Below the pieces are notes generated by a model. That model saw nothing but the letters and a program-made list of their open reading frames with translations, had not been told where the DNA came from and made no database searches. Shown piece after piece: positions 4,711 to 21,318 of a stretch of DNA of 64,000 nucleotides. Both the position numbers and the translations under genes were made by a program. The DNA is taken from IMG/VR virus record IMGVR_UViG_3300050035_000086, positions 1 through 64,000 of that record; one strand, 5' to 3'. Within the stretch, counting starts at the first letter, position 1. The number at the start of each line of letters is the position of its first letter. Source of the stretch: a virus.

Positions 4711-5397
4711 ATGACACTCGCACACAAATTGACGGCAGCGGCGGCAATCGTTCTACTCGTGCTTTTGGTAGTTGGCGGAATTGCGTGGAGACAGGACCAT
4801 AAAGCCCTGTCACAATCTAAGGCGGTTGAATCTGCACAAAAACCAATTATTGCGCAAGCGACTGCTGACAAGGTGGTGACGACCTCCGATCTTACCAAAG
4901 CTCTGGCCGCGATTCAGCAGCAAAGAACCGTAGTAGTTACTGTCCCGCAAGCCGCCGCCGCAATCGCCCAGGCTATTCCAAATCTTCCTCAGCAAGTCCA
5001 AGTTCAAAACGTACCCGCTACGGCAACGACTCCAGAATCCCAAAGCCTAGTCATTCCCCAAGCCGATATTCCGGCCTTTCAAAAATACAAGTTAGATTGC
5101 GATGAATCGAACGCAAAACTACTGGCTTGTGCCAAGAACGCTGTTGATGACAAGACTATCCTAACTGCGACTGAGAAAGAGCGTGATTCTTGGAAACAAA
5201 CTGCCCAAGGCGGAACCTTCTGGACACGTCTCGGATCTGGGTTGAAACACTCAGGGTGCGGAGCGGCGGGAGGGTTGGTTGGCGTAGAAACTGCCCAATC
5301 TAGAAACGCTACTCCAATGACTGGTATTACCGCTGGGGCAGCAACTTTTGGAGGGTGCGAAGTTTTATCTTACTTTTTAGGGAGACGCCACAAATGA
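4711..5397 (+). CDS. Membrane-anchored coiled-coil protein, possible spanin-like
   Basis: N-terminal TM helix then helical Ala/Gln-rich region; adjacent to holin-like ORF. Confidence 0.45.
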   Translation: MTLAHKLTAAAAIVLLVLLVVGGIAWRQDHKALSQSKAVESAQKPIIAQATADKVVTTSDLTKALAAIQQQRTVVVTVPQAAAAIAQAIPNLPQQVQVQNVPATATTPESQSLVIPQADIPAFQKYKLDCDESNAKLLACAKNAVDDKTILTATEKERDSWKQTAQGGTFWTRLGSGLKHSGCGAAGGLVGVETAQSRNATPMTGITAGAATFGGCEVLSYFLGRRHK

Positions 5398-8979: not shown

Positions 8980-11900
8980 ATGAATAAACTTTTTTTGCTG
9001 CTTCTTATTCCGATTCTTGCTTTTGGTCAAGCCACCACGGGGTACCACCGGGTCAATCAGCTTATATCTCGCGGAACTTCTGGAGTTACTGCTCAAATTG
9101 TTCCCAATGGGTCTATCTACGTAACCAACACGGTTACGGGAGCGACCGCAACTATTTATTCGGACCCCGGTTTGTCCATCCAGATCACTTCGGGGTTGGT
9201 TACCTCCGACAAAAATGGCAACTACGACTACTATATCCCACTGAGTTACTGTGTCAATGAGGCCGTTTCCTCTCCGGGACAAGGAAGTTATACCACAAAG
9301 AATATCTGCATAAACTCTGCGGGGGGTATCATTTCCGCCGGAACCGCAGGCCAGATTCCATATTACGCCGCAAATGGAACTACCGTGTCTCCGACTAGTT
9401 CTCTTCCAAATGGAATCACCGCTGCAACCCAAACCACGGGCGACAACACCACCAAAGTGGCTACGGATGCTTTTGTTCTTGCCAACGCTCCAACCGTAAA
9501 TTTCGCGGCTCCTCCTGTTCTAGGCAGCGCAACTCCGAACGTAGTCAATGGCACGAACGGAAACTTCTCAGGCACCGTCGCGGCTGGCACTTCGATGTCT
9601 GCGCCAGTAACTAATGGCGTGCAGACGGTTCCAGCGATTAGCGGGGATGCTACCACAGCCATCAATTCAGCGCTCTCGTCTGCCGGACCGGGAGGAACTG
9701 TGCAATTAACTCCCGGGTCTGTCTATACGACCCTCGGAACGATTAACGTCACACAGCAGGGTCTGACATTAAACTTTAATGGTGCCTGCATCAAACCTAC
9801 GGGAACCGGAGATAGTCTGCTGGTGAACGTGACGACTGGAATGATTGCTAACGTGGTGCTCAACTCACCATGCTTTATTGCAGGGGGGGCATCCACAGGC
9901 GCGTCGATCCATGATACGTCCAGCGTGTTTGGTACGAAAGTCAATAACCCTTCGTGGAAACAGCTTTCTGGAAACTCGCCGTCGAACGGATATTATTGGC
10001 ATTATCTGATTCAAGTGAATGGAGACGAACAGTTTACTATCGATGGGGCACAAGTTAACGGGACGTTTCTCGAATGCGATGTGACATTCTGCGGAGACGT
10101 GCTCTATAACACGCCCGGCCTGGGAACTGGCTCTGCCGCTGTAGTTTATTTGAACAATTCGAGCTTCAATCTGGAGAATGACGGCAACGGTGTGGACTGG
10201 GGAGGCTACGGAAATGATCTGCATTTGAGCAGTGTGGTGATCGAGAACACTTCGCAGTTCATGATTCGTTCTACTCCGACCGGTGCCGGTACAGGTGATG
10301 TAATTTGCGACAAGTGCCACTTGGAGGATACTGGGAGCAGCACAAATCCCGCCTTAAACGGCATCCACGCAGTTGCATTAGTCATTATGAACGGCGGGAC
10401 TTTTCATAATCACGGCGGAAGGCTTGAAGGTGCAGACATGACCTTCCACGCTACGGGCACCACGGGATCAACTGCCTGGAGTTATTTCTTTATTGCCAAA
10501 AGTGCGACTTACGGAGACACGGCTCCAATACCCTGGGGCCACGTTTCTAACGGGACAGCGGACTGGGTTGGGTCGAGTGTGGCCCTCACCTTCCCGTGCT
10601 TTACTCCGACGGGCAGCGACACAATTACGTACTCGATTTTGCGGACCACGGGGACAACTCCCTACCCGAATGATAATGTCTCGGATGTGGTGGCGATGGG
10701 ACAGACTTGCACGGGGACTTACTGGACATATACAGACACAGTTCTCACCTCGGCTCTGACGACTTATACTTTCACGGTCAACAGGTATAGCTTCTTTCCT
10801 AACAAAGTTCAGTACTTCTGGGGCAGTATTTTTCTCGGTGGCGCTGCCGCGAATGACAATACCCAAGAAGGGTCCTACACCGGAGACTGTCAGTTTGGTA
10901 ACAACGTTATTACGGCTCGAAATTACTCGCTGGTCAACTTTCCGCAAGTGTGGTGCGACAGTCCGTCCTATACCTATAATCCAAACGGAAGTCCTGTGAA
11001 TGTGGTTCAGGCGGTCCATTATACCCCGTATTACCAATCTGCTTTCATGCTTCAGAATAAATTCGGTGTGTACACTGGTGGAGGACAGAAGGGCGTTCTG
11101 AATCTCGGCTACTCTAACGCCCCGATGGACATTCTCACACTGTCAGACAGCAGTCCCTATAAGACGCTTTCCACATCGGATAATAGACCTGGGCACGATG
11201 CGGCAGACTCTGCTTTGGGGTCTGACAGTTCGACTGGAGACTTGGCACTGCGCAGCGGCAGTTCAATCGATTTGTATGTAAATAATTATTTCGATGGCTC
11301 GAATTGGCAGGAAAAGCTCACCGGCAATACAAAGATACTGAAATCCTCCTACGTGAATTGGACTGGGTTACTGGGCCTCCCAGCAGGAACGGCAAAATAC
11401 GGACTTCAGATAGATACAAACGGGGCCATTTCCCCCACAGGAACCAATAGCATCCCGACAGCGCAGGACCTTACAACGACGTATCTTTGCATCGGAAATA
11501 GTGGAACGTGGCGTCCCTACACATGCACAACGAGTCCGAATTTCACACAAACAAGCTGGGATTTATTTCTCTTTGTTCCCGACGTGACAAACACGAATGC
11601 GGGGGGTCTATCTCCTGAGTTAAACATCAACGGAGGTGGGAACGTGTATATCTACCAGCAGACTGCTGCCGGTCCTGCAACGCAAGTTCCAGCGGGAACT
11701 TTGCAGGCAGGGGTTCCGTATTGGATCGCTCATTCACCGGCATTCCAATATCTTTTGGTTGGACCTGCCGTACAACCGATCACGCTTACCGCTACAGGAA
11801 CGAGCGGGGCGGCAACCTATTCAAACGGCGCGCTAAACATTCCACAGTATGCGGGCGGATCGGCCAGTACGGTCCCCGGTGACCTGATTTGCGCTCATAT

Positions 11901-13326: not shown

Positions 13327-15405
13327 ATGTCAGTTCTCCCTGAACCCGTAATTGATGTTCATCAAGATTTAACTCCAGATGAAGCGCGCGTATTCCTCAA
13401 TACGGGGACATGGGGCGATGACGGAGCTCGAAAACTTGCGGTACAAGATGCCGAAAGAGCCGAGTCTGACGCGCAGAGAAAAAGCTGGATAATGGCCTGG
13501 GTTTCTTCTAGGGACTTGTACGCCAGTATCTACGCCCCTAATTTTTGGCCTGGGACTTCAATCGAGGCATCTTCTGTAAATTTCTTCACCGTAGCGACAG
13601 CTGTAAATGGCATTAACCCCCAACTTCTCGCTGGTTTATTCTACGAGAATCCTCCCTTTATGGTTCAGGAAAGACCCGGAACTTCGGCACAGTGCGCCCG
13701 GGCAGTTTCTGCTCTGCTAGGATATCAACTCGAAGATATCAACTTCCGAGAAGAACTCCGTCTTGGTTTGATGAACTGTCTGCTATTTGGTACAGCCATC
13801 TTCCAGGAGGGGTGGGAAAAATATACCAAGACCCGGAAGATTGTTAAGCGAAAGAACCCGGTTATTAAGATTCCGAGCACGATTCCCGGAGCACCAGAAA
13901 CCTCAATTTCAGACGACGAGTTAGAAGTAGAAGAGATCGAAGAAGTAATCGACAGACCTACTTTTGAGCACATAGTCAATCTTCGGGAAATTCTGGTAGA
14001 CCCAGGTTTGGAAGTTCCGGAGATTCGCAAAGCTAAGTATGTTGTTCGTCGTCGCTACATGACGTGGGACGACATCGATAAGTTGCGCGACCGTGAGGGG
14101 TATGACATTCCGTCCCGCGAGAAAATGCTTGAGTTGTTTCTTCCCCCGAAGGAGCCGGTTGAATCTAATCCTCAACAGGAAGGCGGACGTAATCCTTTGT
14201 GGGACGCGCGCGCGGAATCTCCGTGGGAAGCAACTACAATCGATCCTTTCCAGCAACCTCTGGAAGTCCTCGAACGTTGGGACAACAAAACCCTAATCGT
14301 AGTGATCCAGAAAAAGGTAGTCATCTACAACGGACAGAATGCCTACGGTAAAATCCCGTTCCTGAGCATTGGATGGTGGGATCAGCCTGGAGCTTTCTGG
14401 TCCATCGGATTAGGCCGGTTGATTGGCACCGAGCAACGTGTCCAAGCTGGTATCACGAACCTGATGATGAATATTGCGAACCTGAAGCTGAATGCTCCTA
14501 TGGTTCGCGTAAAAGGAAAGTCGGTCCCGACACAAAGCATCCGAATCGGTCCTAACAAAATGATCGAAGTAGATGCCCAAGGCGATCTACAACCTCTGAA
14601 ATTCGGAGACCCGGTACAAGAAGCCAATCAGCTCTTTGCCATGTCTCAGCAGAGGGTAGATTCGGTGTCGGGGGCCAACCCTATTACGTCTCAGGGAAAC
14701 GCGGGGTCGGCTGGACACTCTAATCTCGCGCGGTCATCTGCCGGGGCCTCTCTTCTCGGACAAGGTGCGTCAAATATCATCTCCGATTGTATTGATAAAC
14801 TGGCTAATCAGGTTTTGGTGCCGTATTTGTATGACATGCAAGAGATGAACTCAATGATGCTGCCGTACAGCCAACTCGATTGGATCATGTCAGAAGAACT
14901 GAAGCATGATTATATAACAGAAGGGGGGGATCTTGTTGAGATACTGAACGCCAAGGTGAAGTTTACAGTATTAGCGGGAGCAAAAATGCAAACACGCCGA
15001 AACATGGCCCAAGGTTTGCCCATGCTTACTCAATTTCTAGCTAATCCTTCCGTTATTGAACAACTTGCCCTAGAGAACAAGAAGGTTGACGTGAACGAGA
15101 TTTGCCGGATGTGGTTTGAGGCTAGTGAATTCAAAAATCAGAACGATGTGATTATTGACATGACTCCTGAAGACCAACAGCGTCAGCAGCAGAAAAGCCA
15201 AAATGGGGCCGCTCAACAGAAGTTCCAGCAGCAGCAAGCTCTTCTTCAGCAGAAGGCTGCGGCAGCGGAGCAACTTGCTGATTCTGAAAATGTCGCGCGC
15301 GCCGCCCGGGACGTACTTCGGGAGGGCTTTAAAAAGTCCGTAGAACCGGAAATGCTTACGGGACAACCTCAAACTAGCGGATCAGGATTTGGTGGAAACC
15401 TCTAG
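13327..15405 (+). CDS. Portal protein
   Basis: 692 aa, position between terminase and scaffold/capsid, typical segments (LLFGTAIF, YGKIPF, FWSIGLG), Q-rich C-terminal helix as in podoviral portals. Confidence 0.8.
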   Translation: MSVLPEPVIDVHQDLTPDEARVFLNTGTWGDDGARKLAVQDAERAESDAQRKSWIMAWVSSRDLYASIYAPNFWPGTSIEASSVNFFTVATAVNGINPQLLAGLFYENPPFMVQERPGTSAQCARAVSALLGYQLEDINFREELRLGLMNCLLFGTAIFQEGWEKYTKTRKIVKRKNPVIKIPSTIPGAPETSISDDELEVEEIEEVIDRPTFEHIVNLREILVDPGLEVPEIRKAKYVVRRRYMTWDDIDKLRDREGYDIPSREKMLELFLPPKEPVESNPQQEGGRNPLWDARAESPWEATTIDPFQQPLEVLERWDNKTLIVVIQKKVVIYNGQNAYGKIPFLSIGWWDQPGAFWSIGLGRLIGTEQRVQAGITNLMMNIANLKLNAPMVRVKGKSVPTQSIRIGPNKMIEVDAQGDLQPLKFGDPVQEANQLFAMSQQRVDSVSGANPITSQGNAGSAGHSNLARSSAGASLLGQGASNIISDCIDKLANQVLVPYLYDMQEMNSMMLPYSQLDWIMSEELKHDYITEGGDLVEILNAKVKFTVLAGAKMQTRRNMAQGLPMLTQFLANPSVIEQLALENKKVDVNEICRMWFEASEFKNQNDVIIDMTPEDQQRQQQKSQNGAAQQKFQQQQALLQQKAAAAEQLADSENVARAARDVLREGFKKSVEPEMLTGQPQTSGSGFGGNL

Positions 15406-16474: not shown

Positions 16475-17647
16475 ATGAACAACATGAGTAAGCCCGTAAA
16501 TGACCCCTGGCTCCTGAACTCCGACGGAAGCCCCGACCCATTCGCAAACAACGTAGATTGGAATATGCCCGATCTTCCCAACCTCGACGAGGACATCAAC
16601 GACCAAGATCCAGTTCTTGCCCCTCAAGACCCAGACCCCGAAGTAGTTGAAACTCCGGTCGTCGAAGTCCCACCACCGCCTCCCGAGGAGCCAGAAGAAC
16701 CCGAAACAATGGATCTCGAAGATGGTACTCAACTAGTCTTGAGTAAAGACAAAGGCGTGTGGGTTGGATCGGTCGTAGGTCGAGCGGGAAGCGCCCAAGT
16801 CTACAAAGGGGCCACCAAGAATAAACTGATCTTGGAAGTCCTGAAGGCTCAGGCAAATGCTACCAAGAAGATTCGGGAGCAGAACGCTAAGATCAAGTTT
16901 GGTGCTATTCCCACCAAGCCGGTAGCACAAACACAGACCCCTCAGCCGTCTCCTGTCCGGCAACTCACAGCAGACGAGATTTTTGAATATCGAACTTTAT
17001 GGGAGTCGGACCCAGTAGCCGCTAATGACTTCTTGCTCCAAAAGACTCGCGGGGTGACGATGGACCAAGTCCTGAATCTTGCCCAGCAGGGAGCACAAAA
17101 AGGATCGTACGCAGCCAATCAGCTTACCGCCGAGCAGGCAAATAAAACCTTCTTGGCGAACAATCCGGACTACTTCCCGGATAACAATTTTGTGAACTTC
17201 AACCTGCTACTTCAGTGGCTGGCAAAGTTCAAACTCGGCGAATCAATCCGAAAGGGAGAAGAAGAAGCTGTATTCAATAAGCTGCTCTCCACCGGAAACT
17301 ACACAGCCGAAAATCTTGAGGAAGCCTTCCAAGACCTGAACAATGATGGTTTGATGATTCAGGCACCAAGGCAACCCAAAACACCTTCACCGGAAACGGT
17401 GGAAACCCCTCCGCCGGTAGCGGTTCAACACGAACCGGCACCTGCGCCGCGTCCCGACTCACGGATTGTAAGTCAGGTTACGCGCCCGAGAGCGGCACTA
17501 GGAATTGGTAGGAATGACGTAACACCCGTCAAACCTCCGGAGTCTCCGAACGCGCCCTCAGCCGAGGATTTTGAGAACATGACAGACGAAGAGGTGGCGA
17601 ATACTCTCAATGCCATTCGTCGGGCACGTGCTCAAAGTCGGCGCTAA
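16475..17647 (+). CDS. Putative capsid scaffolding protein
   Basis: Acidic/Pro-rich termini, helical core, immediately upstream of the capsid gene. Confidence 0.6.
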   Translation: MNNMSKPVNDPWLLNSDGSPDPFANNVDWNMPDLPNLDEDINDQDPVLAPQDPDPEVVETPVVEVPPPPPEEPEEPETMDLEDGTQLVLSKDKGVWVGSVVGRAGSAQVYKGATKNKLILEVLKAQANATKKIREQNAKIKFGAIPTKPVAQTQTPQPSPVRQLTADEIFEYRTLWESDPVAANDFLLQKTRGVTMDQVLNLAQQGAQKGSYAANQLTAEQANKTFLANNPDYFPDNNFVNFNLLLQWLAKFKLGESIRKGEEEAVFNKLLSTGNYTAENLEEAFQDLNNDGLMIQAPRQPKTPSPETVETPPPVAVQHEPAPAPRPDSRIVSQVTRPRAALGIGRNDVTPVKPPESPNAPSAEDFENMTDEEVANTLNAIRRARAQSRR

Positions 17648-17673
17648 AAACTAACACAAAGGAGTATCTCTAA

Positions 17674-20316
17674 ATGAGTTACTCACCAGCATCAATCGTG
17701 ACTTCGGGCGCATTGCCCAACCTCGTAGCTATTCACTAAAATCTTGGTGAATTCAAACTGTTCTAAATCGGCGAAAATCTTCTTGACAAGGTCTGCTAGG
17801 TGTGGTAGACTATAGTTATCGAATAAAGAAAACGCCGAGGAAACCGTGAAAGAGAAAACCAAAAGTTATATGGCTGGGATTCTAGATGCAGAAGGTTGCC
17901 TCCGAATCGCCACCCACAAACGAGGCAACAAAACCTACTACGAACCCAAGGTCTATTTGAGTAACAAATCAAAGGCCGTGATGCAGTGGTCGGTCCTACA
18001 TTTCGGGGGAAGTTTCGTCCGAAATGTAAACAACAAAGCAGGGGAAGATTGGTTCATTTGGTATCTTCAATCATTTCCCACCGTTGTTAGTTTCCTCAAA
18101 ACTATTCTGCCCTACTTGAAGTACAAGAGGGAGCAAGCTGAAACTCTTATTGAGTTCATTGAGAACAGAGAAAATCTGTCCGACAACCAAAAGAACGAGT
18201 ATGTTCTGAAACTCAAAGAGATGAAGCAACACGGGTCCGTAACGACTGAAACGAACAGCAGCTATCTAAAAGCAGAACCAGCATACCTAGCCGGATTCTT
18301 TGATGGCAAAGGTTGTGTTCGGGTCAATAAGACTCCGATGAAAAACACAACCGCCTACCATCTAATTGTATCTATTGCCAACAACGACCGATCTGTTTTA
18401 GATTCTTGTAAAGAACTCTATGGCGGAGATGTCAGAGCCAAAGGGAAAAGAAATTGCTTCTCTTGGAGTTTATTCTCCAAAGCAAGCATTGAAAAATTCC
18501 TCGTGGATAGCCTTCCGTATCTTGTAGTTAAAAGAGACGAGGCGTTGGCGGCACTAGAATACGTTCAACTAAGACGAGCACAATGCCCAGCAAAACGCGA
18601 AGCCTTGTATCTTCGGTTGATAGCTTTAAAGAAGCTGAAGACACAGTCTGAACTGCATAGTGATATGCAGAGCGCCCCAGCAGAGATGCTGACGGCCTAA
18701 AACACACTGATGAACGTGAAGCAATTCCTAACCTGAAGGCACAAACTCCCTTCCTCAGCATGACGAAGCAGCGTCCGCTGCCCCTCCGTCAGGGAAACCA
18801 AATTCAGTGAACAATATTGCTGAATCCAAATCCGGCTATATCGGTGGACAACTCTCTGAGTCAATACCGAGGGAAGACTGGGAAACCAGAACCCGTAGAG
18901 GCTAATACGCCGGACAGTCCATTATTTGGACTGAAGATAGAGTCCGAGCTATGGGGTGACCTATAGAGCGACCTTGTGGTGACGCAAGAGAGGCGAAAGC
19001 CTAGTGACCCGAAAGGGCATTTCCAAAACAAGACTGTCTTCACCTACGCTCTGCTTGCCGCTAACCTTAATCAGGCTGCGGAAGGCACAGTCGGATCTCC
19101 TATCAGTGAATCCAGCAATAAAATTGTCGCGACCATCGGGCAATATGCTGATTTCATTAATAGTTCCGACCTTGCCCTGGACGTTGCAATTGACGACCCG
19201 GGTCTCCTTCAGAACTTGGCAAACGAACTGAACTACCGCTTGGCTCTCACCCTCAACTCCCTCGTCCAGCTTACCGCTGACTCGGCTGTTGCGGTCGATA
19301 GCTTGGTAAACATCCAGCTTGCAAACGGCTCGTATCTGACTGCGAATAACATCCGGTCTGCTGCTCAGTCGCTGGTAAGCGTTAACGCTCGTCCTCTCGT
19401 GGACAACAAATTTGGTGGAATCATTCACCCTAATGTAGTCCGCGACGTGCTGAACGACACCTCCTTTAATGGTCTGACCGACATTATCAAGAGGTCTGAG
19501 GAAATGCGCAACATGCTGTTTGAACTGCCTAAGAATGAGGATACCATCTCGTTCGCCGGGGTCACGTTCAAACAGACATCCACTGCCCCCACTGTAACAA
19601 TCTCCGGAAATACCTATGGACTTGAAAGTCTAGTAGCCTGAAGAAGTAATTCTTCTTGAATCACGTCGCTAATTCGGTGGACATCTCTCAGAGACAATAC
19701 CGAGCCAAACCCAAGAAATTGGGAAGTGTGTAGAGAGCATAGACGACGCTCCTGAAAAGGATGATGATGTGCTCCGGCCTGTATGGCGACATACAGAGAC
19801 TGATAGAAATACTCAGTCCCGTCCAGATACTGGACGAGTAACAAAAGCGTACAATAGTTATATTTTCGGCGATGACGCAATCTTCTCCGTCTTCCTGGGG
19901 AAGAATCCAAACGATGGATCGAAGAACTATCAAATGGTAGCTTAGGGGAGTAATTCCCTTCGAACACACCGCTAATTCAGGGAACAACTCTTCGGAGTCA
20001 ATCCTGAGCGAAGCCCGAAAGGGAACGTGCAGAGGCCATACACGGTGCCCCTCGAAAGAGGGTGATGAGATGGTCCGCTCTATACGGCGACGTATAGAGG
20101 TGGGCGGAACAAGAAACGACCCACCCTTGTCCAAATAATGGACATGTAACACAGAGGAAATTGTTCATACAGTCCGCGCCAGAACAAGGCAGCGTGAGTG
20201 ATCCGGCCCGTCAAATCGGCGGGTGGGTCAGTTACAACGTGAGGTATACCAATACTTTGCGTCCGGGCTCGACAATGACGCTTCGTCGTTTGCAGTCGGA
20301 AACATCATCCAGCTAA
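17674..20316 (+). CDS. Major capsid protein, spliced: join(17674-17737,18710-18808,19037-19617,19850-19930,20158-20316), 327 aa
   Basis: Exons sum to 984 nt in frame: MSYSPASIVTSGALPNLVAIH-Y-EREAIPNLKAQTPFLSMTKQRPLPLRQGNQIQ-F-FTYALL...QYADFINSSD...IIHPNVVRDV...SGNTY-YNSYIFGDDAIFSVFLG...KNY-KLFIQ...DPARQIGGWVSY...SETSSS*; resembles N4-gp56-like capsid proteins; RBS AAAGGAG. Confidence 0.88.
17783..17811 (+). promoter_or_regulatory. Intron-internal sigma70 promoter for the endonuclease ORF
   Basis: TTGACA-17 bp-TAGACT with TG extension, 35 nt upstream of GTG 17846. Confidence 0.7.
17846..18700 (+). CDS. Intron-encoded double-motif LAGLIDADG homing endonuclease/maturase
   Basis: Motifs YMAGILDAEG and YLAGFFDGKG, each followed by 'LPYLxxKREQA/KRDEA' helices. 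Confidence 0.88.
   Translation: MKEKTKSYMAGILDAEGCLRIATHKRGNKTYYEPKVYLSNKSKAVMQWSVLHFGGSFVRNVNNKAGEDWFIWYLQSFPTVVSFLKTILPYLKYKREQAETLIEFIENRENLSDNQKNEYVLKLKEMKQHGSVTTETNSSYLKAEPAYLAGFFDGKGCVRVNKTPMKNTTAYHLIVSIANNDRSVLDSCKELYGGDVRAKGKRNCFSWSLFSKASIEKFLVDSLPYLVVKRDEALAALEYVQLRRAQCPAKREALYLRLIALKKLKTQSELHSDMQSAPAEMLTA
18809..19036 (+). mobile_element. Group I intron 2 (228 nt, ORF-less)
   Basis: P1 ATTCAGT/GCTGAAT U-G; P3 CCGGC/GCCGG; J8/7-P7 GAAGATAGAGTCC; terminal G19036; removal restores QIQ-F-FTY. Confidence 0.88.
19618..19849 (+). mobile_element. Group I intron 3 (232 nt, ORF-less)
   Basis: Exon ends CTAT pairing with GTAG; P3 CGTCG/CGACG; P7 GAGCA/TGCTC; P8 TCCT-gaaa-AGGA; terminal G19849. 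Confidence 0.83.
19931..20157 (+). mobile_element. Group I intron 4 (227 nt, ORF-less)
   Basis: Exon ends CTAT pairing with GTAG; P3 CACCG/CGGTG; P7 GGCCA/TGGTC; P8 CCCTC-gaaa-GAGGG; terminal G20157; similar to intron 3. Confidence 0.83.
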
Positions 20317-20370: not shown

Positions 20371-20447
20371 GTACTTGGATTCGAATTCAAAGGTAAAGGG
20401 CGGCGCTGACCCGTCGCCCCAAACCTCATGGTCAGATGAGGATAAAA

Positions 20448-20981
20448 ATGAAAACCAAAGTTTGCAAGAAGTGTGGAATAGAGAAATCAGTAGAAGAGTT
20501 TGGTAAAAAGCTGTCGGGATGGACTGCCTTGTGTTTAGATTGCACGCGGCGGAGAGATAGAGAACGATATGCGGCCAATCACGAGGAAATTAGGGAAGTG
20601 CAAAATGAGTACTACTCTAAGAACTCGGCAAAGATAATGGCGCAGATGAAGCAGGCACTAAAGAATCACCCGGAAAGAGGTCTTCTTAGGTTAGCTCAAC
20701 GTCGCTGCAAGAAGTCGGGGGTTGTTTGCACGATAACTGAGAAAGATATTGTAGTTCCGGAGTTTTGCCCCATCCTGGGTTTGAAGTTAGAATTTGGGGA
20801 AATGGATAACCGAAACAACTCTCCGAGCCTGGACCGCATAATCCCCGAACTAGGGTACGTCCCGGGAAACGTTGCTGTAATCTCGTATAGAGCCAATCGA
20901 ATCAAAAACGAAGGTCTAGCAGAAGAGCACCGCAAGATAGCCGACTGGATGGACGCCCAAAAGGAACTCACCAATGCCTAA
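20448..20981 (+). CDS. Free-standing HNH-type homing endonuclease
   Basis: N-terminal CKKC...CLDC zinc motif; CPILG...SPSLDRIIPELGYVPGNVAVISYRANRIKN. Confidence 0.8.
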   Translation: MKTKVCKKCGIEKSVEEFGKKLSGWTALCLDCTRRRDRERYAANHEEIREVQNEYYSKNSAKIMAQMKQALKNHPERGLLRLAQRRCKKSGVVCTITEKDIVVPEFCPILGLKLEFGEMDNRNNSPSLDRIIPELGYVPGNVAVISYRANRIKNEGLAEEHRKIADWMDAQKELTNA

Positions 20982-21318
20982 CCTCCTATTTTCGTTGACA
21001 GCAAAGGACTTCGAGTTCCAAACCTTCTGCACAGGAGGAAACGGGGGCCAGCATCGCAACGCCAAGCAGAACGGTGTCCGGTGCATTCACCCACCCTCTG
21101 GAGCCGTTGGTGAACACCGAGATGGCCGAGACCAGTTCCGAAACAAGCAGGAAGCGTTCCGAAAGTGCTGTGAGTCCCCCAAGTTCAAGGCTTGGCACCA
21201 TGTCGAGGTCCTAAGACACACCGGGGAGCTACGAGAGATTGAAGAACGGGTAGACCGAATGATGTCTTCCGAAAATATCAAGATCGAGTATTTGGGAGAA
21301 CCAGAATATGTCTGCTGA
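20974..21318 (+). CDS. Peptide chain release factor-like (RF-1/GGQ domain) peptidyl-tRNA hydrolase
   Basis: TGGNGGQHRNAKQNGVRCIHPPSG...RDQFRNKQEAF. Confidence 0.85.
   Translation: MPNLLFSLTAKDFEFQTFCTGGNGGQHRNAKQNGVRCIHPPSGAVGEHRDGRDQFRNKQEAFRKCCESPKFKAWHHVEVLRHTGELREIEERVDRMMSSENIKIEYLGEPEYVC

Follow-up and report, generated by a model that had tools for sequence, protein, structure and literature searches.

The major capsid protein gene of an uncultured phage of ~93 kilobases (kb) is, judging from its sequence, divided into five pieces by four group I introns. The phage is represented by IMG/VR virus record IMGVR_UViG_3300050035_000086, a metagenome assembly of 92,952 bases that is rated 86% complete, and the gene occupies positions 17674-20316 of the stretch of DNA that we analysed (positions 1 to 64,000 of the record, 64,000 nucleotides (nt); hereafter, the window), in which the exons, the introns, the predicted regulatory elements and both endonuclease genes described below lie on the + strand. 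We observed a split gene structure, ribozyme architecture in the inserts, purifying selection on the exons and presence/absence polymorphism of the introns among related phages. We consider it very probable that the inserts are four bona fide group I introns, that they are spliced, and that they are selfish mobile elements instead of a regulatory device.

A capsid gene in five exons

The capsid gene is preceded by a scaffold-like open reading frame (ORF) of 390 amino acids (aa; 16475-17647), and the ORF list of the window contained no intact capsid ORF 3′ of it, in agreement with a first-pass annotation of this DNA, which had proposed five exons encoding a 327-aa protein. Excision of 17738-18709, 18809-19036, 19618-19849 and 19931-20157 leaves 984 nt, corresponding to 327 codons plus a stop codon in a frame without defects. 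Exon 1 (17674-17737; 64 nt) encodes residues 1-21 together with base 1 of codon 22, and was placed by tblastn (query residues 1-21) and spliced alignment; exon 2 (18710-18808; 99 nt; codons 22-54 plus base 1 of codon 55), exon 4 (19850-19930; 81 nt; residues 249-275) and exon 5 (20158-20316; residues 276-327 and the stop codon) were placed by homolog and spliced alignments; and exon 3 (19037-19617; 581 nt; residues 55-248) was placed by homolog alignments. Intact homologs of 327-328 aa matched the five exons exactly by tblastn, and a spliced protein-to-DNA alignment that made no use of the earlier coordinates returned the identical five exons, such that the proposed boundaries and frame proved exact to the base. 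The joined product aligned with 75 full-length uninterrupted homologs without gaps across all four junctions, the split codons Y22 and F55 were invariant in this alignment, and the junction peptides that the annotation had listed (IHYER, QIQFFTY, NTYYNSY and KNYKLF) all occur in uninterrupted homologs. A Shine-Dalgarno-like AAAGGAG (17658-17664), read from the sequence, is found 9 nt ahead of the capsid ATG at 17674. The 92,952-nt record holds no second capsid gene, making the split gene the sole copy.

The region gave no megablast match to GenBank phages. The largest exon matched 267 relatives, many of them uninterrupted proteins of 326-330 aa that are annotated at source (JGI) as "N4-gp56 family major capsid protein". 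Among cultured phages, the annotated major head protein of Tunturiibacter phage Tunturi_3 (a 97.6-kb podovirus with an Acidobacteriota host) is 41% identical to exon 3. The nearest homolog of the joined product, P0003 (95.7% identical), matches PHROG 1357 (major head protein; E = 1e-15) and NCBIfam TIGR04387 (N4 gp56 type; 39.9 bits, E = 3e-10, under the 60-bit equivalog cut-off); it is a relative of the N4 gp56 family that lies outside membership by the NCBI cut-off. An AlphaFold model was made for P0003 from an alignment of 35 homologs (predicted local distance difference test (pLDDT) score, 62; predicted template-modelling (pTM) score, 0.62; the joined product itself was not folded). Its best structural match was the phage N4 capsid (9e99_A; E = 7.6e-10, probability 1.0), followed by the HK97-fold capsids of Moo19, DEV and a cyanopodophage, and the model thereby supports the earlier expectation that the product is an HK97-fold major capsid protein.

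The exons also bear a signature of selection. Compared with three intron-less alleles (L007, L008 and L009), the window coding sequence is ~78-80% identical at the nucleotide level, with a synonymous divergence (pS) of ~0.8 and a nonsynonymous divergence (pN) of ~0.02-0.03, giving pN/pS ratios of 0.02-0.04. Each short exon has accumulated many synonymous-only codon changes, with 0-3 amino-acid changes in each comparison (0-2 against L007 and L008); exon 1, for example, differs from L007 by 12 synonymous-only and 0 amino-acid-changing codons, and for exon 2 these counts are 15 and 0. These values place all five exons under strong purifying selection, such that the five pieces are kept as one reading frame.

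Four group I introns from a single compact family

The inserts share the boundary features of group I introns. Each of the four is preceded by T and ends in G (at 18709, 19036, 19849 and 20157), and each has a guide sequence, lying 7-16 nt into the intron, that can pair with the end of its own 5′ exon to form a P1 helix with a U·G pair at the 5′ splice site (7, 7, 4 and 4 base pairs (bp) in introns 1-4, respectively). Every insert also matched the Rfam group I model (RF00028, Intron_gpI; gathering score, 50 bits), and the claim of the first-pass annotation that all four are group I introns is upheld by these features together. Intron 1 (17738-18709; 972 nt) bears an ORF and gave a partial Rfam match (28.6 bits, E = 1.2e-4). 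The remaining three have no ORF. Intron 2 (18809-19036; 228 nt), in which the guide GCTGAAT pairs with exon sequence ATTCAGT over 7 bp including the U·G, scored over the gathering score (51.0 bits), and a 98% identical copy occupies the same site in the related locus L006. Intron 3 (19618-19849; 232 nt; guide GTAG, exon CTAT) scored under it (38.3 bits, E = 1.5e-7) but can be aligned across the whole family core, and its ortholog at site 744 of L039 is 89% identical. Intron 4 (19931-20157; 227 nt; again guide GTAG, exon CTAT) scored 63.8 bits, over the gathering score, and L005 carries an intron 98% identical to it at this site.

To place these introns among their relatives, 80 related loci were taken and 112 distinct intervening sequences were extracted, 109 of which form one similarity network. 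Where junctions were set by protein alignment alone, T at the last exon position and G at the last intron position co-occurred at 135 of 168 (~18 expected by chance). The P1 helix averages 5.9 bp across 91 family members, compared with 3.5 bp in mismatched exon-intron controls.

The ribozyme core was assessed by covariation in an alignment of 64-66 ORF-less introns that included window introns 2-4, with the P3-P9 core and the P3/P7 pseudoknot drawn from intron 4. Paired cells made up 82.5% of the core, compared with 32-47% when partners were slid by one to three columns; the former figure is inflated by the kinship of the sequences and by the drawing of the structure from one of them, but the margin over the slid controls is large even given this caveat. 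Double-sided changes were found in 33 of the 38 core pairs. P7 was 98% paired, with a G-C pair (columns 94/143 of alignment A2) that is invariant in 63 distinct sequences and stands beside an unpaired base (column 93), an arrangement that we predict to be the guanosine-binding site; in P9 the figure was 99%, and six of its pairs covary. The canonical core is complete in introns 2-4, which also have P9 hairpins capped by GNRA loops and P9.1/P9.2 extensions. A 140-position covariance model of the family core (R1) scored intron 2 at 118 bits, although intron 2 belongs to the training set of that model. Taken with the compensatory changes in intron 1 described below, the covariation bears out the P3, P7 and P8 elements that the first-pass annotation had noted, and all four inserts are assigned to one compact family of group I introns. 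The compact core, which has neither P5abc nor P7.1/7.2, we take to resemble the IC3 introns of bacterial tRNA genes, as a lead only. When the genome was searched for scattered repeats of the P9 hairpin, the pattern used matched introns 2-4 alone.

Intron 1 and its LAGLIDADG endonuclease

In intron 1, the core is interrupted by coding sequence. The guide GGTGAAT (17746-52) pairs with exon ATTCACT over 7 bp, with the U·G pair, to form P1, and the core is completed by P3 (CTGTT 17758-62 / AACAG 18254-58), P4 (TCGGCG 17768 / CGCCGA 17833), P6a (CCGTG 17844 / CACGG 18230), a J6/7-P7 strand (GTAACGACT, 18239-47) that equals the family consensus and pairs with P7′ (AGTCT 18645-49), a long-range P8 (CAGCT 18259-63 / AGCTG 18633-37) and P9 (18653-70). 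Model R1, the training set of which did not include intron 1, matched its 5′ half (17754-17894; 19.8 bits) and its 3′ half (18592-18672; 39.1 bits), with a weak third match inside the ORF corresponding to the missing centre of the core. Four orthologs, L012, L011 and L042 among them, back P3, P6a and P8 by compensatory changes: P3 is CCTTG/CAAGG and P6a CCAA/TTGG in L042, and P8 is CAGTT/AACTG, CAATT/AGTTG and CAACT/AGTTG in the other three. These comparisons confirm, at the level of sequence, a complete group I core with an ORF threaded through two loops. Three other readings (TCGGCG/CGCCGA as P3, TAGACT as the 5′ strand of P7 and AGCTT/AAGCT as a local P8 hairpin) were dropped after alignment with ORF-less orthologs and in view of the compensatory changes.

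The ORF (17846-18700) encodes a predicted 284-aa, double-motif LAGLIDADG endonuclease (Pfam PF00961, LAGLIDADG_1, 40.8 bits against a cutoff of 23.1; phrog_5046, E = 1e-39). Its first domain, with motif 1 (GILDAEG, residue 11), lies in the P6a loop, and its second, with motif 2 (GFFDGKG, residue 150), lies in the P8 loop; the core strands between them are translated as linker residues 128-139, and the C terminus of the ORF overlaps P8′-P9.1. The catalytic acidic residue is present at the end of motif 1 and missing from motif 2, where residue 155 is Lys in the window protein compared with Glu in the other 21 long (≥270 aa) family members aligned, the substitution being confined to the window ORF. 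The endonuclease may therefore be decaying, inactive, a nickase or a maturase.

Predicted splicing and a possible dependence on helper proteins

In the explanation that we favour, the late transcript would lose the four introns by guanosine-initiated, two-step transesterification, with each guide holding its 5′ exon in P1 by way of the U·G pair and the terminal G setting the 3′ splice site. The spliced mRNA would then be translated into a 327-residue HK97-fold capsid protein related to N4 gp56, and the homing-endonuclease gene of intron 1 would be expressed from within the ribozyme loops, with a promoter-like element preceding it in the P5 loop. In this account, the introns would be selfish mobile elements, optional at every site and part of a swarm that occupies at least 32 sites, with the guide sequence deciding where an intron copy can live. 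We infer the splicing, the endonuclease-driven homing and the route to new sites from sequence, and several points weigh against the account. An exact search for the spliced junctions 2 and 4 in viral contigs and metagenome contigs found no match; introns 1 (28.6 bits) and 3 (38.3 bits) fall under the Rfam gathering threshold; P1 of introns 3 and 4 has just 4 exon-side bp; the covariation draws on related sequences; the fold was predicted for the close homolog P0003 instead of the joined product, at moderate confidence (pLDDT 62); and homing of intron 1 today is doubtful, because Lys replaces the catalytic Glu of its motif 2.

Some of these features would also be expected if the inserts were real group I introns that needed a protein to splice, be it the LAGLIDADG protein in the role of a maturase, or an RNA chaperone of the host or phage. 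Maturases derived from homing endonucleases are established for fungal mitochondrial introns, and the window LAGLIDADG protein has lost one catalytic acid while keeping an intact 284-aa frame; in addition, P1 is short in introns 3 and 4, and the introns are small, with few peripheral stabilizing elements. However, introns 2-4 have the complete cores, capped P9 and P9.1/P9.2 extensions noted above, many introns in relatives are ORF-less and some genes have no intron ORF at all (L023-L025), and the Lys substitution is found in one sequence alone. We therefore regard dependence on a helper protein as unlikely, relative to introns that are spliced by their own ribozymes.

Intron polymorphism across related phages

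Intron content varied widely among relatives. Of the 68 loci with a complete gene, 27 were intron-less and the others carried one to eight introns, with the highest loads in L039 (eight), L084 (seven), and L006 and L036 (six each). Insertion sites that obey the T/G boundary rule numbered at least 32, distributed as 13, 2 and 17 over successive thirds of the gene, and all 42 complete genes with such junctions were open once their introns were removed. Among non-redundant relatives, window sites 1-4 were occupied in 9/57, 15/59, 4/61 and 14/61 cases, respectively (7-25%). In the remaining 75-93% the site is vacant, and the alleles that lack the intron aligned without gaps. Because occupancy is low and polymorphic, the introns look like optional mobile elements. 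No pair of relatives with coding sequences ≥97% identical at the nucleotide level differed in intron number. Residue conservation at insertion sites was 0.892, compared with 0.865 (P ~0.06), a marginal difference from which we draw no claim. Group I matches in the record, and in the flanks taken from relatives, were found exclusively in the capsid gene.

Such instability bears on a regulatory role. The first-pass annotation had proposed that the four splicing events act as a timing or GTP/Mg checkpoint, retained in order to couple capsid synthesis to GTP/Mg2+ or to delay it. Group I splicing does require guanosine and Mg2+, and the most abundant virion protein does need four splicing events. 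However, no window site is conserved, two-fifths or so of the complete genes (the 27 of 68 above) do without introns, and even L005 (the closest relative) and L006, with three and six introns, differ from the window in their intron sets and carry the endonuclease ORF in another intron. Stability would be expected of a regulatory device under selection, and because these introns are not stable, the checkpoint proposal is disfavoured; we consider it very improbable. Poorer still, and barely credible, is a dead copy (whether the phage is defective, the split arose in assembly or the inserts are inteins, with no capsid protein made from the split gene), for although ORF callers would find no intact capsid gene and the record is an incomplete metagenome assembly, pN/pS is 0.02-0.04 in every exon, the frame is free of defects after intron removal, the record offers no other capsid gene, and independent assemblies hold 98% identical introns. 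Inteins specifically are ruled out, as the inserts have stop codons in the exon frame, shift the frame and fold as ribozymes.

With the introns read as selfish mobile elements, their distribution also carries information on how they may spread. Intervening sequences were of two sizes: those of 190-290 nt were ORF-less, those of 600-1300 nt carried an ORF, and 30 of the 31 intron ORFs belonged to one LAGLIDADG family. In L005, the endonuclease ORF is in the intron at site 163 and the intron at site 64 is ORF-less, the opposite of the window; the exon targets of these two sites (ATTCACT and ATTCAGT) differ by one base, and both introns belong to the same core subfamily. More generally, core subfamilies recurred after particular exon motifs: one after ATTCA(C/G)T (sites 64 and 163), another after CTAT (sites 744, 747, 756 and 825) and a third after ACGT (sites 742, 879 and 908). 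Cores of introns at different sites were 73% identical if the last four exon bases were shared, compared with 52% otherwise. Because each subfamily is found repeatedly behind one exon motif of 4-7 nt, the guide appears to decide the site. Such sharing is compatible with insertion directed by the guide, as in reverse splicing, and also with a filter for insertions that are competent to splice. That one compact family is spreading within a single gene by guide-directed insertion, for which reverse splicing instead of endonuclease homing would be expected, and that the capsid gene acts as an intron sink, is a reading that we hold tentatively and place somewhat short of even.

Two further types of insert were observed in relatives. 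L018 has, at 4952-4997 (as do L019-L021), a 46-nt, stop-containing gap between residues 297 and 298 that is preceded by T and ends in G; a micro-exon of 39 nt and then an intron of full size come after it; similar gaps occur near residue 297/298 in L031, L032, L039, L061, L083 and L084. The minimum intron length of the spliced aligner (80 nt) led it to misplace the 297/298 junctions, and the capsid gene of the window has no short insert of the 46-nt type. Some ORF-bearing inserts of 650-1060 nt, for which the protein alignment gave no T...G boundary, occur at residues 185/186 (L074, L077, L081, L080 and L079) and at 73 (L029, L030 and L082). Their best placements end in A, which a small shift of the alignment or a different boundary rule may explain.

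Comparison with known systems

Several known phage and organelle systems resemble parts of this arrangement. The gene orf142 of Staphylococcus phage Twort is reported, from 1999 work by Landthaler and Shub, to carry three group I introns whose splicing was shown in vivo and in vitro; like the window gene, it is a late phage gene with several related, ORF-less group I introns, but it has three compared with four in the window and up to eight in relatives, and splicing in the window is predicted from sequence. The T4 introns in td, nrdB and sunY encode GIY-YIG or HNH endonucleases, each within a single loop. They share with the window the combination of a ribozyme and an intron endonuclease with an internal promoter-like signal, as well as presence/absence polymorphism, whereas the window ORF is a double-motif LAGLIDADG gene that runs through L6a and L8 with the core as a linker. 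Mitochondrial introns of fungi are known to include ORFs extending across the core, and fungal mitochondrial cox1 is a sink for many LAGLIDADG-bearing group I introns of several subgroups, the number of introns varying widely between close relatives. The likeness to cox1, as one conserved gene serving as an intron sink, is qualified by the difference between an organelle gene with several intron subgroups and a phage structural gene with one compact family.

A four-intron phage capsid gene is itself of a known kind. In the Zeta group of crAss-like phages, the ORF of the major capsid protein (MCP; cMAG OLRF01000054) is in five fragments, three of the four inserts code for domains characteristic of group I introns, and the failure of automated annotation was stressed (PMC7886860). 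Both cases are phage capsid genes cut in five by four inserts. In the crAss-like MCP, however, which comes from gut phages of Bacteroidetes, the introns were recognized by the endonuclease domains that they encode, whereas the window has three ORF-less introns identified by RNA structure, in an unrelated ~93-kb lineage with an N4-type capsid and relatives that carry 0-8 introns at ≥32 sites. The Jug jumbo gut phages (360-402 kb) have ~18 group I introns each, of ~206 nt, in essential genes such as terL, and the splicing of 37 of 76 introns was confirmed by metatranscriptome reads (PMC12880540). These too are many small group I introns that break essential genes, but they are spread over many genes, compared with the capsid gene only in the window record. 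In light of the five-fragment crAss-like MCP (PMC7886860) and the ~18-intron phages (PMC12880540), the first-pass annotation is out of date in its remark on the rarity of late genes with several introns. Introns are not mentioned in the Tunturi phage paper. The load among relatives (up to eight introns in 984 nt, and at least 32 sites) exceeds those of the crAss-like MCP (four inserts) and Twort orf142 (three), the multi-intron phage genes in the literature consulted.

As the first-pass annotation anticipated, the split gene presents no intact ORF to gene callers, which overlook the capsid gene of this phage and many of its relatives, such that surveys using capsid markers would under-count or mis-split them. 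The lineage also provides a natural data set on intron spread (>100 distinct introns of one family at ≥32 sites, with matched empty alleles), in which the recurrence of 4-7-nt motifs makes reverse splicing and endonuclease homing testable against each other, and its ORF-less ribozymes of ~230 nt, with guides matched to different targets, constitute a ready-made series of retargeted ribozymes. If guide-directed spread is true, the capsid gene of a soil phage lineage would bear comparison, as an intron sink, with cox1 of fungal mitochondria.

Promoter-like elements and neighbouring genes

A sigma-70-like element (TTGACA-N17-TAGACT with an upstream TG; 17783-17811) precedes the endonuclease ORF in the P5 loop of intron 1. 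It was recognized by consensus match only, agreeing at 10 of 12 positions, and no promoter-like sequence of the region matched better. It is kept in orthologs as TTGACT..TAGCAT and TTGACA..TAATAT, and we regard it as a predicted promoter. With a small covarying hairpin (CTGCTA..TGGTAG / CTATCA..TGATAG), it forms a TTGAC(A)-N17-TAnnnT cassette that recurs in L036 and L039, where two introns without an ORF (sites 106 and 163) have it in their P5 loops, and that looks like a movable module. Across the window, the extended -10-like sequence TGTGGTANNNT has 8 matches, compared with 1.4 expected, at 9647, 15431, 17801, 20360, 22386, 36301, 52880 and 56152, and is likely a phage promoter element. One copy is inside intron 1, where the P5-loop element shares the over-represented TGTGGTA motif, and another is 66 nt before a free-standing endonuclease gene.

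That gene (20436-20981), the next one 3′ of the capsid gene, is predicted to encode an endonuclease VII / HNH-like protein (phrog_3322, E = 5.7e-33; phrog_1035, E = 7e-24), with nothing at E 0.01 or better in Pfam, and is a possible trans-acting homing partner of the ORF-less introns. Its end is overlapped by 8 nt by a small ORF (20974-21318) that matches a family of peptide chain release factors with an RF-1 domain (phrog_3122, E = 5e-24). Upstream of the capsid gene is a portal gene (13327-15405; Pfam SU10_portal), and nine tRNA genes (Rfam tRNA matches) are clustered at 173-1202, at the start of the window.

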